64,000 nucleotides of DNA from Eubacteriales bacterium (GTDB taxonomy: Bacteria; Bacillota; Clostridia; Oscillospirales; CAG-382), in assembly GCA_045539625.1 (NCBI GenBank), contig JAZQFS010000025.1, positions 18,626 through 82,625 on the forward strand, given 5' to 3'. Within the stretch, counting starts at the first letter, position 1, and every line of letters starts with the position of its first letter. The notes beneath the pieces are model-generated. The model saw only the letters and a program-made list of their open reading frames with translations, searched no databases and was not told where the DNA came from. Positions 45,816-50,611 of this stretch are shown here, in pieces. Both the position numbers and the translations under genes were made by a program.

Positions 45816-46023
45816 TTTTAATTCCTCTTATGTATAATTATCATTATTCTACATATATATAATGCTGTTACTTTTTATATACCCGTATATTATACGCCCT
45901 GCAAGCTCTGTTGTCAAGTAAAATTACCCAAGCAATATAACAAAATGTTTTCAAAAATTACATACACCGTTACAGCACTTCTGCTAAATTATATAGTATA
46001 AAGAAAAAATGGAGGTTATCACT

Positions 46024-46638
46024 ATGTCAATTGATATGTCCGCACTCAACAAGGTTTCCTACGGTCTGTTTGTTCTCACCTCAAAGCTTGGTGACAGGCA
46101 CGGCGGCTGTATAATAAACACGGCAATGCAGTTAACTGCAGATCCAATAACCTTTTCTGTTGCTGTCAACAAGCAAAACTTCACTCACGATATGCTAATG
46201 AAAAGCGGAAAGCTGAATATTTCGGTTATATCTCAGTCTGCGCCCTTTGATTTATTCAAGCACTTCGGCTTCCAAAGCTCAAGAGATGTTGACAAATTTG
46301 CAGACTTCAAAGATGCCAAATTAAGCGAAAACGGACTTTATTATCTCACAAAGCACTGCAGTGCCGTAATATGTGCAAAGGTAGTGCATACCATTGACTG
46401 TCAGACTCACACGCTGTTTATCGTAAGTCTTACAGATGCCTTTACGGTATCCGAGGAAGAGCCTGCCACATATGCTTATTATCACAAGCACATAAAGCAA
46501 GCGGCAAAGCCCTCCGAAGAAAAGAAAAAGGGATATGTCTGCAAAATCTGCGGATACGTTTACGAAGGCGATCCCTTGCCCGAGGACTTTATCTGTCCGT
46601 GGTGCAAGCATCCCGCATCGGATTTTGAAAAGCTGTAA
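46024..46638 (+). CDS. Flavin reductase-like domain fused to rubredoxin (high-molecular-weight rubredoxin type)
   Basis: The N-terminal domain has a flavin-reductase pattern (YGLFVLTS......GCIINT). The C-terminus, YVCKICGYVYEG...PEDF.CPWCKH, is a rubredoxin with CxxC...CPxC. The ATG at 46024 follows GGAGG. Confidence 0.75.
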   Translation: MSIDMSALNKVSYGLFVLTSKLGDRHGGCIINTAMQLTADPITFSVAVNKQNFTHDMLMKSGKLNISVISQSAPFDLFKHFGFQSSRDVDKFADFKDAKLSENGLYYLTKHCSAVICAKVVHTIDCQTHTLFIVSLTDAFTVSEEEPATYAYYHKHIKQAAKPSEEKKKGYVCKICGYVYEGDPLPEDFICPWCKHPASDFEKL

Positions 46639-46707
46639 TCTGCTTTACGCACCCATTTACACCGATGTACAAAATGCCCTGTCAGATTTTTTTGACATTT
46701 AACTGAT

Positions 46708-46746
46708 AAAAAACGGAGTGTTCATATTGAGTGCTCCGTTTTTTGG
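46708..46746. terminator. Rho-independent terminator (A-run/T-run on both sides)
   Basis: AAAAAACGGAG...CTCCGTTTTTTGG. Confidence 0.75.
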
Positions 46747-46768
46747 TTAAATACAGTTTTCGGATTAG

Positions 46769-47120
46769 TATGGCAAAAATGATATACTGCTTTGCCGTAT
46801 GACATAATATCCGTTCCTCCATATGCCGAAGGCATATATCATCGCACTTAAGTGCGATATCATACCGTAGGTATATCACCTGTTCCGAAAGGAACGGATA
46901 TCATCTCAAAAATTTTGCTTTTTTGCGTATAATCTTTAACCTTTGAAGAATCACGGCAACGCCGTGTATATCATCAAGACGAAGTCTTGCATATCATCAA
47001 CTCCGTAGGAGTTGTATATCATCATTGCGAAAGATAATACAGCTTGACAGCTGATGAGATACACGCTTACGCGTGATGATATGCGCCTGCGGCGATGATA
47101 TACCATTGCTTTCGCAATGG
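46769..47120. repeat. Array of at least 11 sequence-divergent short hairpins, each with the conserved flank ATATCATC (or GATGATAT on the other strand), in two inverted arms
   Basis: ATATCAT(C) occurs at 46836, 46857, 46873 (ATATCAC), 46898, 46968, 46991 and 47016. The inverted GATGAGAT/GATGATAT occurs at 47053, 47075 and 47093. Each motif abuts a different 4-7 bp hairpin. No credible ORF is present. See findings. Confidence 0.7.
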
Positions 47121-47121
47121 A

Positions 47122-47150
47122 TAAAAAAACGACAGGATGAAACCTGTCGT
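47122..47150 (-). terminator. Rho-independent terminator of tRNA-Glu
   Basis: Minus strand reads CGACAGG-TTTCAT-CCTGTCG followed by T7. Confidence 0.85.
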
Positions 47151-47154
47151 TTTT

Positions 47155-47229
47155 TGGTGACCCGTACGGGAATCGAACCCATGTTTTCGCCGTGAGAGGG
47201 CGATGTCTTAACCGCTTGACCAACGGGCC
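47155..47229 (-). tRNA. tRNA-Glu (anticodon CUC), CCA encoded
   Basis: The reverse complement is GGCCCGTTGGTCAAGCGGTTAAGACATCGCCCTCTCACGGCGAAAACATGGGTTCGATTCCCGTACGGGTCACCA. The cloverleaf folds, with anticodon loop CT-CTC-AC. Confidence 0.9.
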
Positions 47230-47246
47230 TTAATTGGTACTTGCAT

Positions 47247-47275
47247 ATTGTAGCACAACAAAAAGATTTTGTCAA
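47247..47275 (-). promoter_or_regulatory. Sigma-A promoter of tRNA-Glu
   Basis: Minus strand has TTGACA (47275-47270), a 17 nt spacer, then TACAAT (47252-47247). Confidence 0.75.
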
Positions 47276-47329
47276 GATGTTTTCACAAAAAACAAAGCCA
47301 AAAAATTATTATTTTTTTCAAAAAAGGTA

Positions 47330-47358
47330 TTGACAAACTAGAATTAATGTGATAAAAT
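47330..47358 (+). promoter_or_regulatory. Sigma-A promoter of tRNA-Gln (extended -10)
   Basis: TTGACA at 47330-47335, 17 nt spacer ending TGa, TAAAAT at 47353-47358. Confidence 0.7.
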
Positions 47359-47400
47359 AATTGACGTTGTGAGCGAGGAAGCTTGCAGACAGCCCAATAT

Positions 47401-47475
47401 AGCGGAATTGTGTAACGGTTAGCACGACAGACTCTGACTCTGTTTGTCTGGGTTCAAATCCTAGTTCCGCTGCCA
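47401..47475 (+). tRNA. tRNA-Gln (anticodon CUG), CCA encoded
   Basis: AGCGGAATTGTGTAACGGTTAGCACGACAGACTCTGACTCTGTTTGTCTGGGTTCAAATCCTAGTTCCGCTGCCA. Anticodon stem is ACAGA/TCTGT with loop CT-CTG-AC. Confidence 0.9.
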
Positions 47476-47478
47476 AAA

Positions 47479-47506
47479 ATCCAACTCTTATGAGTTGGAT
47501 TTTTTA
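47479..47506. terminator. Rho-independent terminator after tRNA-Gln (usable on both strands)
   Basis: ATCCAACTC-TTAT-GAGTTGGAT flanked by AAAA on one side and TTTTT on the other. Confidence 0.85.
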
Positions 47507-47601
47507 TTTGTGTCCGCAAGGTCACAACATCGTTTGCCCGCAGTGCAACACCGATTGAAGCAAAGCGAGATCATTAATGTATCATTCGGACACAACAGCA
47601 A

Positions 47602-47633
47602 CGGAGCACCCGTTTGGGGTGCTCCGATTTTTG
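47602..47633. terminator. Strong GC-rich terminator-like hairpin with no associated gene
   Basis: CGGAGCACCC-GTTTG-GGGTGCTCCG, followed by ATTTTTG on the plus strand and TTGCTGTTGTGT on the minus strand. Confidence 0.6.
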
Positions 47634-47893
47634 TTACTGTGCTTTAGGGACGTCTGCAATCCTTGTCAGAACAGTATTATCAATACGGTAAGCAAGCTTT
47701 ATACCGGTCAAAGCTCCGTCAACCGCTGTTTTGAAGGGCTGTGATATAAATTTTTCTGCTTTTTACATATACTATATTATACCCTTTTAATACACTTGTC
47801 AAATTTATTACATGAAAAACATAAAAATCCGAACAATTTTAATAAAATTTCCCATAATCGGATGTTCAATTTTTACATTTTTTTGCGATTGAT

Positions 47894-47986
47894 GAAAAAA
47901 AGCCCCATAAAATGAAATAACGCACCGAATCGGTGCGTCTGCAATCATGTAAAACAAGCTGCTATTTCATTCAAATGCCTAGGGGA
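47894..47986 (-). terminator. Compound terminator of the small-peptide gene
   Basis: On the minus strand, an outer stem CCCC..ATGAAATA / TATTTCAT..GGGG encloses an inner CGCACCG/CGGTGCG hairpin and ends in GGGGC-TTTTTTT. Confidence 0.6.
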
Positions 47987-48130
47987 TTAAAGTCCAAGTG
48001 AAGCCAAGCTTTCAAAAAGAACCTCTGCATTGATGAGAGCTTCGTTTTCTGCTTCTCCACTTGCGTTGAGGATATCCTGAGCCGAAACCGCGGACACTTC
48101 AACTTCGGGTGTTGCGTAAGTCTTCTTCAT
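47987..48130 (-). CDS. Small acidic peptide, 47 aa (MKKTYATPEVEVSAVSAQDILNASGEAENEALINAEVLFESLASLGL); paralog of 2372-2497
   Basis: ATG follows GGGAGGA. It has its own TTGACA-17-TACAAT promoter and its own terminator. It shares the N-terminal motif with the first peptide. It is below the ORF-track cutoff. Confidence 0.6.
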   Translation of the reverse strand: MKKTYATPEVEVSAVSAQDILNASGEAENEALINAEVLFESLASLGL

Positions 48131-48294: not shown

Positions 48295-48323
48295 TTGACA
48301 TTTGAGAGCTATGTGAATATAAT
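48295..48323 (+). promoter_or_regulatory. Sigma-A promoter of the marR-ABC operon
   Basis: TTGACA at 48295-48300, 17 nt spacer, TATAAT at 48318-48323. Confidence 0.75.
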
Positions 48324-48357
48324 AATTAACGTGTTAACAGTTAGCGTGTTAATTAAT
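48324..48357 (+). promoter_or_regulatory. Probable MarR operator
   Basis: AATTAACGTGTTAAC-AG-TTAGCGTGTTAATTAA is two copies of TTA(A/G)CGTGTTAA, each nearly palindromic. They lie between the -10 element and the RBS. Confidence 0.5.
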
Positions 48358-48375
48358 TTACAGGGAGTTGATAAG

Positions 48376-48849
48376 TTGTCACAAGTATTTGACAAAGAAC
48401 GTGCACACGATACCTTTTTCGGTATGCTTCAAACCGACAGGCTGCACAGAAGCGTGGTTGAGGATTTTCTGTCGGTGCTGGGAATACACAGAAGCCAGCA
48501 TCTTACACTGCTGTATCTGTCAAAATCCGAAAACTGTCCGTCGCAAAAGGCTATTGCAGAGCATTTTAAAATAAGTCCTGCCGCAGTTACGGTAACCTTG
48601 AAAAAGCTTGAAGAGGGCGGCTATATACTGCGCAGCAGCGTAGAAAAGGATTCAAGATACAACAGCATTGCCCTTTCCGAGAAAGGAAAAGAAGTTGTTG
48701 CACAGTCAAGAAAGCTTTTTGAGGAAACAGACATTGCAATGTTCAGCGAATTTACCGATGAGGAATACGAGCTGTTCAACAGATGCATAAACAAAATGAT
48801 GGACGGTCTTACCAAATTCAGGCAAAACCGCAACACAAATCAATTGTAG
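48376..48849 (+). CDS. MarR-family transcriptional regulator
   Basis: Winged-helix region (LTLLYL......SQKAIAEHF.ISPAAVTVTLKKLE..GYI.R......D.R.N.I.LSEKG). The TTG at 48376 lies 8 nt after GGGAG, whereas the track ORF start sits inside the promoter. Confidence 0.8.
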   Translation: MSQVFDKERAHDTFFGMLQTDRLHRSVVEDFLSVLGIHRSQHLTLLYLSKSENCPSQKAIAEHFKISPAAVTVTLKKLEEGGYILRSSVEKDSRYNSIALSEKGKEVVAQSRKLFEETDIAMFSEFTDEEYELFNRCINKMMDGLTKFRQNRNTNQL

Positions 48850-48865: not shown

Positions 48866-50611
48866 TTGAATCGTTGGTTTAAATACATAAAGCCCTACCT
48901 GCCCTATTTCATACTTGGACCGTTATGTATGATTATCGAGGTGCTGGGCGAGGTTTTTATGCCCCGTCTTATGGCAAAAATCATTGACACGGCGGTAGTT
49001 GAAAACGTGGCAACAGGCAATTGGAAAGGCGTACTTATAATTGCGGCAGGTATGATTGTACTTGCACTTATAATGATGCTGGGAGGCGTTGGAGGCGCAT
49101 ACTTCGGTGCAAGAGCCTCTGTCAACTTCGGTGCAGACCTTCGTCTTGACGTCTACAGAAAAATACAGAAGTTTTCCTTTGCAAACATTGACAAATTCAA
49201 CACAGGCTCACTTGTTACACGTCTGACAAATGACGTAACACAGCTGCAGAACTTTGTCAATATGCTGCTTCGTATGTTTCTGCGCTCACCCGGTATGCTT
49301 ATCGGTGCCGTTATTATGGCAATACGCATAAATCCGAAGCTCGCTCTCATTCTTGCAATCACCATTCCCATAATGCTGTGCTTTATCGGCATTATCATTA
49401 AGGTAGGCTTTCCACGTTTCGGCAGAATGCAGACCAAAATCGATGCTCTCAACTCAACGGTACAGGAAAATCTTACCAACATCCGTGTTGTAAAGAGCTT
49501 TGTACGTGAAGAGCACGAGCAGGACAAATTTGAAACTGCAAACCGCAACCTTAAGCAAGCGGGTATTCACGCCATAAGCGTTATGATTTTTATGTCCCCT
49601 CTTATGATGCTTCTTATGCACCTGACCTCAATTGCCGTTATATGGTTTGGCGGCGGTCAGGTAATTGTGGGCACAATGAGTGTTGCGGATTTATCTTCCT
49701 TTATTACATATATCACACAGATTCTTATGTCCCTTATGATGTTCTCAATGCTGTTTATGAGCACCAGCCGTGCTTTTGCTTCTGGCAAGAGAATATGTGA
49801 GGTTATGGATGAAAAAATCGACCTTGATGATGCACTTGCTTCTCGGAAGGACAAGGAAGTTACCGAAGGTACAGTTGAATTCAAGGACGTATCCTTCCGT
49901 TACTACAAGGACAGCGAGGAAAAGGTGCTTAACAACATCAACCTTGTCATTCCCGCAGGAAAAACAGTGGGCATTATCGGCTCAACGGGAAGCGGTAAGA
50001 CAACACTTGTTTCTCTTATTCCAAGACTTTACGATGCCGACGATGGCGAGGTGCTTGTTGACGGTGTAAATGTAAAGGAATACTCCCTTAAAAACTTAAG
50101 AAACGGCGTAGGTATGGTGCTTCAGAAGAACGTGCTGTTTTCGGGAAGCATCAGGGACAATCTTCTCTGGGGTGACGAAAACGCAGACGACGAAACAATC
50201 ATAAACGCCGCAGAAAGTGCACAGGCACACACCTTCATTTCCTCCTTCAAGGACGGATATGACACCGAGCTTGAGCAGGGCGGAAGCAACGTTTCGGGCG
50301 GTCAGAAGCAAAGACTTTGTATTGCAAGAGCACTGCTGAAAAAGCCCAAGATTCTCATTCTTGACGACTCCACAAGTGCCGTTGACACAGCAACCGAAGC
50401 AAGAATAAGACACGCCTTTGCAAATGAGCTGCGTGACTCTACCAAAATCATCATTGCACAGCGTATCGGCTCTGTAAGGGATGCGGATATGATTATCGTT
50501 GTAAACGAAGGCGAAATCACAGGCATCGGAAGCCATGCACAGCTTCTTGAAAACAACAAGGAATATCAGGAAATATACTACTCACAGGTTGACGGAAAGG
50601 AGGACAAGTAA
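48866..50611 (+). CDS. ABC exporter, fused permease/ATPase (heterodimer half 1)
   Basis: Six-TM exporter domain followed by GSTGSGKTT, LSGGQKQR and ILILDDSTSAVD. TTG start follows GAAAGGAAG. Confidence 0.85.
   Translation: MNRWFKYIKPYLPYFILGPLCMIIEVLGEVFMPRLMAKIIDTAVVENVATGNWKGVLIIAAGMIVLALIMMLGGVGGAYFGARASVNFGADLRLDVYRKIQKFSFANIDKFNTGSLVTRLTNDVTQLQNFVNMLLRMFLRSPGMLIGAVIMAIRINPKLALILAITIPIMLCFIGIIIKVGFPRFGRMQTKIDALNSTVQENLTNIRVVKSFVREEHEQDKFETANRNLKQAGIHAISVMIFMSPLMMLLMHLTSIAVIWFGGGQVIVGTMSVADLSSFITYITQILMSLMMFSMLFMSTSRAFASGKRICEVMDEKIDLDDALASRKDKEVTEGTVEFKDVSFRYYKDSEEKVLNNINLVIPAGKTVGIIGSTGSGKTTLVSLIPRLYDADDGEVLVDGVNVKEYSLKNLRNGVGMVLQKNVLFSGSIRDNLLWGDENADDETIINAAESAQAHTFISSFKDGYDTELEQGGSNVSGGQKQRLCIARALLKKPKILILDDSTSAVDTATEARIRHAFANELRDSTKIIIAQRIGSVRDADMIIVVNEGEITGIGSHAQLLENNKEYQEIYYSQVDGKEDK

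Follow-up and report, generated by a model that had tools for sequence, protein, structure and literature searches.

Two adjacent hairpin/linker units of the orphan Gut-1 class at the 3' end of a tRNA-Glu gene in an Eubacteriales bacterium

The stretch of DNA analysed here (64,000 nucleotides from an Eubacteriales bacterium, contig JAZQFS010000025.1 of assembly GCA_045539625.1, hereafter the window) contains at 46769-47155 a series of short hairpins whose stems differ and whose separators are ATATCATC on the left and GATGATAT on the right. Our results provide good support for the view that this region consists of two adjacent hairpin/linker units of the Gut-1 class (Rfam family RF01706), designated E1 and E2, located at the 3' end of a tRNA-Glu gene. 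The array is a linker-swapped variant of this orphan class and is missed by the Rfam model. Compared with the catalogue in which Gut-1 was described, the two-arm anatomy, a long-range helix (X), the docking on tRNA ends, the linker types, the host range, and the turnover of the units are new.

A permissive Rfam scan of the window detected Gut-1 at 46831-46906 on the minus strand with the full model (47.2 bits, E = 1.2e-7) and, weakly, at 47030-47106 on the plus strand within the tRNA-proximal arm of E2 (25.1 bits), neither of which reaches the Gut-1 gathering cut-off of 50 bits. The covariance-model check proposed in a preliminary description of the window has in this way revealed a relative, and the opinion expressed there that no described element has this architecture proved wrong in view of the Rfam match and the published Gut-1 alignment; ROOL and GOLLD, singled out there for special attention, gave no Rfam match in 46000-48000 with E values up to 10. 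Classical arrays in related loci (denoted by L numbers), the same loci that harbor window-type units, exceed the cut-off (50.5-74 bits, including 74, 68.8, 63.7, and 59.5 bits), and each of their arms matches the Gut-1 model on its own strand, the best match being the tRNA-proximal arm on the tRNA strand. The Rfam Gut-1 model failed to detect the window-type units of L133 and L159. The Gut-1 architecture (three hairpins with variable stems and a constant linker) was found in E1 and in each arm of E2. RNAalifold analysis of 52 window-type elements predicted 41 base pairs, 19 of which show compensatory changes, and the 211 distinct inter-linker hairpin sequences are 97% Watson-Crick, in agreement with the hairpin covariation of Gut-1 and with the preliminary claim that structure is kept while stems vary. 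Niche and lineage also agree, since both types occur in metagenome-assembled genomes (MAGs) of gut Clostridia, share loci (L151 and L171), and occupy the same syntenic site, a bona fide UGAAAU-type Gut-1 array (48.7 and 43.1 bits) being present at the flavin-reductase/tRNA-Glu site of L005. Like the window units, Gut-1 has three to four short hairpins with variable stems and a constant linker of 7-8 nt, half of its terminal hairpin also pairs beyond the third hairpin, it possesses a second inverted arm, and it is found in gut Clostridia directly behind a tRNA terminator. The difference lies in the linker, which in Gut-1 is purine-rich with the consensus GUGAAAU ((G)UGAAAU/GUGAUAU overall), whereas the window has GAUGAUAU/AUAUCAUC. 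E2 carries the complementary linker in its tRNA-proximal arm and is therefore swapped in polarity: this arm reads RUGAWAU on the tRNA strand in the classical types and the complement, AUAUCAUC, in the window type.

Gut-1 was catalogued by Weinberg et al. in 2010 from human gut metagenomes only, without organism, context, or function, and only one arm was described (PMC2864571). The Stockholm file of that work, with flanks, contains both linker variants, GUGAAAU and GUGAUAU; its flanks reveal a second inverted arm with AUAUCAC, and half of the terminal hairpin is repeated at the centre (PMC2864571). One member lies directly behind a tRNA and terminator, and there are 14 matches to the tRNA T-loop motif in the file. 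We found no literature on Gut-1 after the 2010 catalogue.

The two units and their immediate flanks have the following parts (MFE, minimum free energy; hpX, the terminal hairpin that complements X):

46009-46638: flavin-reductase/rubredoxin fusion gene, left flank of the array
46708-46744: A-run/hairpin/T-run terminator of this gene (inverted repeat I12)
46769-46905, minus strand: E1, a half-degenerate second Gut-1-type unit of classical Gut-1 topology
46772-46797: hairpin of the decayed second arm of E1, with ATGATAT in its loop
46800-46818: closing segment of E1, pairing with 46890-46908 (inverted repeat I2, 19 nt, 89% complementary)
46862-46874, 46844-46855, and 46821-46837, minus strand: three internal hairpins of E1 (stems ATACC/GGTAT, GCAC/GTGC, and, leftmost, ATATGCC/GGCATAT) with linkers GATGATAT, GGTGATAT, and TATGATAT
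46880-46897, minus strand: terminal hairpin of E1, the first in 5'-to-3' order (CTGTTCC/GGAACGG)
46906-46948, plus strand: spacer between E1 and E2, a diverged copy of the conserved distal extension of one subfamily (...tttttgcgtatgaattcgaactcttacatAAATCA)
46949-47155: E2, a standard unit that follows the family plan, terminator included
46949-47023, plus strand: distal (left) arm of E2, aligning position by position with 51 other elements
46949-46953: degenerate linker AATCA of E2
46952-46966, 46975-46989, and 46999-47013: distal hairpins of E2 (CACGGC/GCCGTG, CAAGAC/GTCTTG, and AACTCC/GGAGTT)
46968, 46991, and 47016: distal ATATCATC linkers of E2
47023-47040, plus strand: centre of E2, X followed by the degenerate linker GATAATAC
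47023-47033: X (CATTGCGAAAG), whose complement lies in the last hairpin (loop and 3' half, 47109-47119; inverted repeat I15)
47040-47123, plus strand: tRNA-proximal (right) arm of E2
47040-47053, 47062-47075, and 47084-47094: proximal hairpins of E2 (CAGCT/AGCTG, CACGC/GCGTG, and CGCC/GGCG)
47053, 47075, and 47094: proximal linkers of E2, GATGAGAT at the first position and GATGATAT at the other two, then GGAT
47103-47120: terminal hairpin hpX (CCATTGC/GCAATGG)
47124-47155: bidirectional terminator AAAAAACGACAGG-ATGAAA-CCTGTCGTTTTTT (inverted repeat I6), abutting the tRNA CCA end
47155-47229, minus strand: tRNA-Glu(CUC), identified by ARAGORN (Rfam tRNA, 63.6 bits), whose CCA end runs directly into the A-run of the terminator

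Direct reading of 46400-47500 confirmed all 11 hairpins of the preliminary description, and its picture of a structured non-coding array with an invariant 8-mer and two inverted arms was borne out by this reading and by the family alignment. The flanks are also as described there (the terminator of the rubredoxin gene on the left and that of tRNA-Glu on the right), and the two 11-nt complements over long range were confirmed (I2 and I15) and are conserved across the family. The same tail was said to follow every left hairpin, which is the case for five of the seven, the other two having the variants ATATCAT-A and ATATCAC-C; similarly, the 8-mer said to precede the right-arm hairpins does so for the later ones, the first following the degenerate GATAATAC. 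The 8-mer ATATCATC/GATGATAT is enriched over background as had been anticipated, with nine copies in the window against 1.61 expected (0 of 100 shuffles reached nine), seven of which fall within 46836-47101. The density of ATGATAT/ATATCAT is 24.6 per kb in the array and 0.16 per kb elsewhere in the window (approximately 150-fold), and no second cluster of this motif was found across the 64 kb. The ORF listing contains no credible open reading frame (ORF) in the array, as stated previously, the minus-strand ORFs of 90-92 aa running through the tRNA.

In the MFE fold of E1, the closing helix encloses the three hairpins (z = -6.3). What lies beyond the distal side of E2 is E1 and not a gene, unlike at other loci, and only 46949-47160 aligns by BLASTN to at least 25 other species (72-90% identity) while flanking DNA does not. 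The spacer between the units carries TTTGcgTATAAT at 46921-46933 (TATAAT at 46928-46933), 15 nt upstream of E2 on the plus strand, which makes it a plausible plus-strand promoter candidate for E2 as judged from sequence; a simple promoter scan of this site did not call it, no -35 element being present. The same tttgcgtataatct is kept in L004, a locus without an array. A conserved extension of approximately 55 nt (ctatgggctacaaaaaagat.tttttgcgtatgaattcgaactct.acat) was observed at the distal end of an array subfamily that includes both linker types (L133, L139, L172, L202, L215, and L241), and L004 retains part of it despite having no array. In addition, two independent metagenome contigs of the same species (L002 and L003) both end inside the first hairpin of E2 (window 46952-46960), which indicates that the array breaks short-read assemblies.

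One genome per species was scanned for ATATCATC-N-ATATCATC-N-GATGAKAT, a cross-genome pattern search (hairpin plus 8-mer) as the preliminary description had suggested, and more than 120 stretches were found among the matches listed, almost all of them in gut Clostridia MAGs; the hosts among these matches belong to Acutalibacteraceae, Oscillospiraceae, Christensenellaceae, and 'Eubacteriales' from human and ruminant guts. That E2-type units form a large family in gut Oscillospirales and Christensenellales is well supported. A canonical Clostridia-type unit was also observed on a 2.6-kb contig labelled Spirochaetales (L150), a label that is probably a binning error. Among the matches listed, 128 arrays were parsed, the commonest form having three exact left and three exact right linkers. 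Read on the strand convergent to the tRNA, the family plan starts with AAATCA (a degenerate linker at the boundary, not a promoter) and three hairpins each followed by ATATCATC, continues with X and a degenerate linker ending in ATAC, and ends with a hairpin followed by GATGAKAT, two hairpins each followed by GATGATAT, hpX, GGAT, an A-run, a terminator hairpin, and a T-run. Both arms have four hairpins, the linker between them being ATATCATC in the left arm and GATGATAT in the right arm, and the last hairpin complements X. Linker spacing varies between 21 and 30 bp in aligned elements, the 8-mer remains invariant across families of bacteria while stems drift, and arrays grow by tandem unit duplication (13+4 in L227 and 6+3 in L238).

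At least three linker types exist, namely GATGATAT, RTGAAAT, and GTGATAT; single genomes hold all three together, and the linkers of the two arms of an element are always mutually complementary. Arrays of the RTGAAAT and GTGATAT types sit behind tRNA terminators in window-type loci (L151, L171, L202, and L241), and in L151 (1647-3700) UGAAAU, GAUGAUAU, and GUGAUAU arrays were observed within approximately 2 kb beside a tRNA cluster. It is well supported that the unit is non-coding, dispensable, chromosomal, present in multiple copies per genome, and equipped with its own bidirectional terminator.

Examination of the tRNA side of the units revealed an ARAGORN tRNA within 80 nt of the hpX/terminator end in 46 of the 92 oriented elements with enough flank. 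All of these 46 elements are convergent with their tRNAs, which have 22 anticodons, and their last linker is always 54-67 nt from the tRNA. In most other elements, GG and a tRNA 3' fragment come after the T-run, a pattern to be expected at sites where the tRNA has been the integration target of another element, and approximately 80% of units abut a tRNA 3' end or such a fragment. The A-run starts at the A of CCA. Because identical terminator hairpins accompany units beside different tRNAs in different species, the terminator belongs to the unit. It is a strict genomic rule that the units dock at the CCA end of tRNA genes, whatever the identity of the tRNA; the adjacency noted in the preliminary description is real, and it is the tRNA, named there merely as a neighbor, that defines the context of the units. 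We discarded the symmetry of A-run and T-run in the terminator as a sign of convergent transcription, since tRNA terminators without arrays are symmetric too.

On the opposite side, genes to the left of the units fall into 65 singleton families, and within 8 kb of approximately 115 loci the only recurrent genes are those of PF05635 (16 loci) and an ABC ATPase (13 loci), on which basis a dedicated neighboring protein was rejected. The AAATCAA boundary reads TTGATTT on the tRNA strand, and a -35 TTGATT, a 17-nt spacer, and TATAAT occur in 19-22 of approximately 80 loci; TTGATT-17-TATAAT at this fixed position is a predicted outward promoter for the next gene. The PF05635 genes ('23S rRNA intervening sequence protein', a four-helix bundle; L159 1455-1814, L183 63-413, and approximately 14 more loci) lie at the distal array edge, are 77-100% identical across species, and appear to be driven by the predicted promoter formed with the array boundary.

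The helix between X and its complement (X') is a conserved feature of the family. The complement run averages 9.3 nt versus 4.2 nt in cross-element controls and is found in at least seven independent sequence types, with the loop covarying too; in the alignment its six stem pairs are 100% paired (312 of 312 cells), 78 cells being changed on both sides, and none of 500 shuffles matched this. A closing helix of the X type is also present in E1. On the plus strand the X helix is perfect and hpX has five broken cells. Folding energies are 6-7 standard deviations better than those of shuffles on either strand; as a guide to strand they were rejected as uninformative because they follow the loop bonuses of the RNA model and contradict the wobble counts. 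In the plus-strand reading, unique internal hairpins of the tRNA-proximal arm have one G·T and ten A·C wobbles. The distal arm has five and three when only internal hairpins are taken, and about 4-7 and about 8, by eye, when the outermost hairpin and looser linkers are added, a bias of roughly 1:1. Since wobble favors it by 10:1, the proximal arm folds better on the tRNA (minus) strand, and this asymmetry implies that one strand matters in the proximal arm rather than a symmetric duplex. Selection acts on a folded single strand, RNA or DNA, and simple tRNA read-through is not supported.

With regard to how such a unit might work, we tentatively favor, at somewhat less than even confidence, a folded single strand, most likely RNA, whose hairpins display the invariant linkers. 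The variable hairpins would serve as spacers that keep the 8-nt linkers single-stranded, one arm offering three or four identical linker copies and the other arm their complements. The linkers would be the recognized parts, read either by a sequence-specific factor (a multivalent scaffold or sponge) or by the opposite arm (self-zipping), and the X helix may close the tRNA-proximal arm into a three-hairpin domain in competition with the terminal hairpin. RNA is plausible in view of the intrinsic terminator of each unit, TTTGcgTATAAT upstream of E2, and fold z values of -6 to -7. As for the strand that may be transcribed, the tRNA strand would fit the wobble and the Rfam orientation, and the opposite strand has the terminator and the candidate TATAAT of the window. 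The symmetric terminator at 46708-46744 could also stop minus-strand transcripts leaving the array. Of the functions proposed in the preliminary description (structured non-coding RNA, protein-binding or sponge array, and repeat family), the structured and non-coding parts are sustained, and all three are still candidates.

Several observations weigh against a folded RNA that displays its linkers. No conserved promoter pointing into the unit was found, since only 14 of 80 elements have one and at scattered positions, and a conserved plus-strand promoter for a small RNA was rejected, AAATCA being a degenerate linker. Units without an intact tRNA neighbor are as intact as the rest, and tRNA read-through is therefore not required. 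Read on the tRNA strand, the unit comes after a strong terminator but has no terminator behind it. The loops are GNA or GNNA in the orientation of hairpin followed by ATATCATC, and the polarity of the loops (GNA versus TNC) reverses along with that of the linkers from one arm to the other and from one linker type to another, for which an RNA made from a single strand offers no explanation. The predominant loops are GNA triloops with a closing C-G pair, a hallmark of very stable DNA mini-hairpins rather than of RNA hairpins. Moreover, arm-to-arm linker pairing shows no covariation, with flanks equally complementary for nested and non-nested pairs; in the commonest state GATGAGAT stands uncompensated opposite an unchanged ATATCATC, and C and G flank variants never co-occur. 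The earlier suggestion that the arms zip into a ladder is correct in that a linker-linker ladder is the MFE fold of E2 on both strands (z = -6.1 and -7.1), but covariation does not support it, and ladder pairing was rejected as a supported feature and kept only as a possibility.

A serious rival explanation, which we consider somewhat less probable, is that the units are DNA elements that move or recombine without an enzyme of their own and act in the form of folded single-stranded DNA, loosely in the manner of REP/BIME elements or integron attC sites; an HUH/RAYT-like or integrase-like enzyme encoded elsewhere would recognize the hairpins and 8-mer and place the unit at a tRNA CCA end. The similarity of elements is independent of tRNA identity (0.627 for same-tRNA pairs and 0.636 for different-tRNA pairs), and the nearest-neighbor element shares the tRNA in only 2 of 37 cases, which led us to reject vertical inheritance with a given tRNA. 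Syntenic relatives, compared by the protein identity of the neighboring flavin-reductase gene, differ in the state of the site as follows:

Window and L001, 99% identity: two GATGATAT-type units
L004, 83% identity: no array
L249, 81% identity: no array, with a 10-nt X-like scar (AAGCCGCAGG) before the terminator
L005, 71% identity: UGAAAU-type array
L245, 69% identity: no array

Syntenic conservation, which the preliminary description had taken as a check, is thus seen in the units of L001 and, with another type of array, in L005, but not in L004, L249, and L245. Because the state of the site varies among relatives, an individual locus can do without the unit, and units are swapped or moved in the course of time. 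The strains of the window and L001 differ in loops, in one linker base, and in one T·G to C-G change. In L249 the exact X-core 10-mer AAGCCGCAGG was observed between two terminators beside tRNA-Glu (2160-2215), possibly as a scar left by a deletion. In L004 (3925-4235) and L245 (2160-2470), both of which lack arrays, the tRNA-Gln/tRNA-Glu pair has the opposite orientation to that in the window.

Such presence, absence, and type replacement at one site, together with the X-like scar, would be readily understood for mobile DNA, as would the terminator hairpins shared beside different tRNAs in different species, the inverted arms with mirrored unit polarity (loop type and linker), the integrity of units without a tRNA neighbor, the lack of a conserved promoter, the expansion by tandem duplication, and the coexistence of three discrete linker types resembling separate specificities. 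The strand bias of the proximal arm corresponds to the tRNA sense strand, and the sense strand of a co-directional gene is the lagging-strand template. On the other hand, no enrichment of transposases, HUH enzymes, or integrases was found within 8 kb of the approximately 115 loci, and there is no target-site duplication or tRNA-derived direct repeat distally; att-like tRNA repeats at the distal boundary were rejected, as only 5 of 94 flanks have any tRNA similarity. Copies within a genome are diverged rather than nearly identical (L136 versus L201; L186), and old, diverged copies still keep the structure, which points to selection at the host level. A phage or plasmid origin was rejected because a scan of IMG/VR yielded nothing but tandem coding repeats and no phage or plasmid sequence was matched by BLASTN. 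A broader proposal, to which we give similarly limited credence, is that Gut-1-class elements are not conventional small RNAs but tRNA-end-docking units recognized as folded single strands on both DNA strands, with at least three orthogonal linker specificities, each having a putative dedicated enzyme or binding protein.

Among known systems, REP/BIME elements are extragenic palindromes associated with RAYT transposases in Enterobacteria and Pseudomonas and thought to act as folded single strands; they are defined by one conserved palindrome per family in many intergenic regions and by a RAYT (Y1 transposase) gene flanked by REPs. They resemble the array in having short palindromes, a conserved non-palindromic tail, alternating orientation after terminators, a variable number of units, and many copies per genome. 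However, stems differ within the array and the linker alone is constant, the placement is at tRNA 3' ends, and no transposase-like cluster is present; no RAYT-like gene was found near the approximately 115 loci, a search that covered the locus neighborhoods and not whole genomes. The attC sites of integrons, single imperfect palindromes of 57-141 nt with inverse core sites that are separated by gene cassettes next to an integrase, are recognized as folded single-stranded DNA with strand bias and likewise keep structure while sequence varies, but no such palindrome, core sites, cassettes, or integrase is present here. On the RNA side, CsrB/RsmZ are multi-site sponge RNAs and 3'ETS-leuZ, a sponge from a tRNA trailer, is a precedent for a functional RNA derived from the 3' flank of a tRNA gene. 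In CsrB/RsmZ, as in the array, hairpins present repeated short single-stranded motifs; unlike these sponges, the array has no GGA motifs, is separated from the tRNA by a terminator, and is intact without a tRNA. ROOL and GOLLD are also non-coding, structured, and often tRNA-adjacent, whereas the array is much smaller, has a repetitive modular plan, and shows no prophage association. Type III toxin-antitoxin loci (ToxI-like) consist of tandem identical repeats of approximately 36 nt followed by a toxin endoribonuclease gene; the units here are non-identical, with inverted arms and unrelated neighboring genes.

It is improbable that the unit is a cis-acting buffer whose hairpin-linker repeats pause read-through from either side, or help to terminate or process it, and thereby shield the next gene from the strongly transcribed tRNA. 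The unit always has a tRNA terminator on one side and the next gene on the other, and the promoter of that gene often begins at the unit edge; its symmetric design means that a polymerase from either side would meet the same hairpin-linker series, and its terminator is bidirectional. Nevertheless, linkers are not U-rich, the terminators are already strong, related species lack the unit at the same locus, and neither the exact invariance of the 8-mer nor the existence of three linker types would be explained.

Still less probable is that a transcription factor or nucleoid protein binds the array as duplex DNA, with TGATAT as its site in two inverted sets, and thereby controls the adjacent outward promoter. 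Six to eight oriented 8-mers do lie upstream of a promoter whose predicted -35 overlaps the unit edge, and the sets are inverted. A phased array of this kind is disfavored because linker spacing is neither fixed nor helically phased, varying over the 21-30 bp mentioned above; besides, the inter-site palindromes are kept by compensatory change and show strand-asymmetric wobble, neither of which duplex recognition needs, and downstream genes are unrelated (the 65 singleton families), the window unit having no such gene.

We dismiss the possibilities that the array is a product of chance or low complexity, the remnant of a gene, or CRISPR-like: a CRISPR array consists of identical 24-48-nt repeats and unique spacers that are not palindromic, with cas genes in the vicinity, whereas here the repeat is 8 nt, the 'spacers' are palindromic (the inverse of CRISPR logic, as had been remarked), and no cas-like family occurs among the neighbors, and the only hint, a sub-threshold CRISPR-DR60 match on the terminator (21.6 bits), stands against the 8-mer enrichment, conservation in more than 100 species, covariation, and absence of ORF or cas context.

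Two further features of the window were recorded. A SAM-I riboswitch is present at 2747-2849 on the plus strand (73.7 bits, over the Rfam cut-off). A conserved ORF of 46-47 aa (MKKTYATPEVEVSAVSAQDILNAS...) without an NCBIfam match occurs on the minus strand of the window (47987-48130) and of L004 (4664-4804), directly upstream of a MarR-family regulator (48295-48849) and an ABC exporter (48866-50611), and its product could be a leader-type or secreted peptide.

Taken together, Gut-1, an orphan since 2010, gains hosts (Acutalibacteraceae, Oscillospiraceae, Christensenellaceae, and other gut Clostridia), an anatomy made complete by two mutually complementary arms, a long-range helix that is conserved, and a terminator belonging to the unit, as well as a genomic rule (docking next to the CCA of tRNA genes), a set of at least three linker types that coexist, and turnover between related species. 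This locus and its relatives make the question of Gut-1 function testable. If the units were structure-coded mobile elements or multivalent RNA scaffolds at tRNA loci, they would represent a new principle in abundant uncultured gut bacteria; if they were recognized as folded strands on both DNA strands, they would constitute a new structure-coded mobile element or a new protein-nucleic acid recognition system at tRNA ends.

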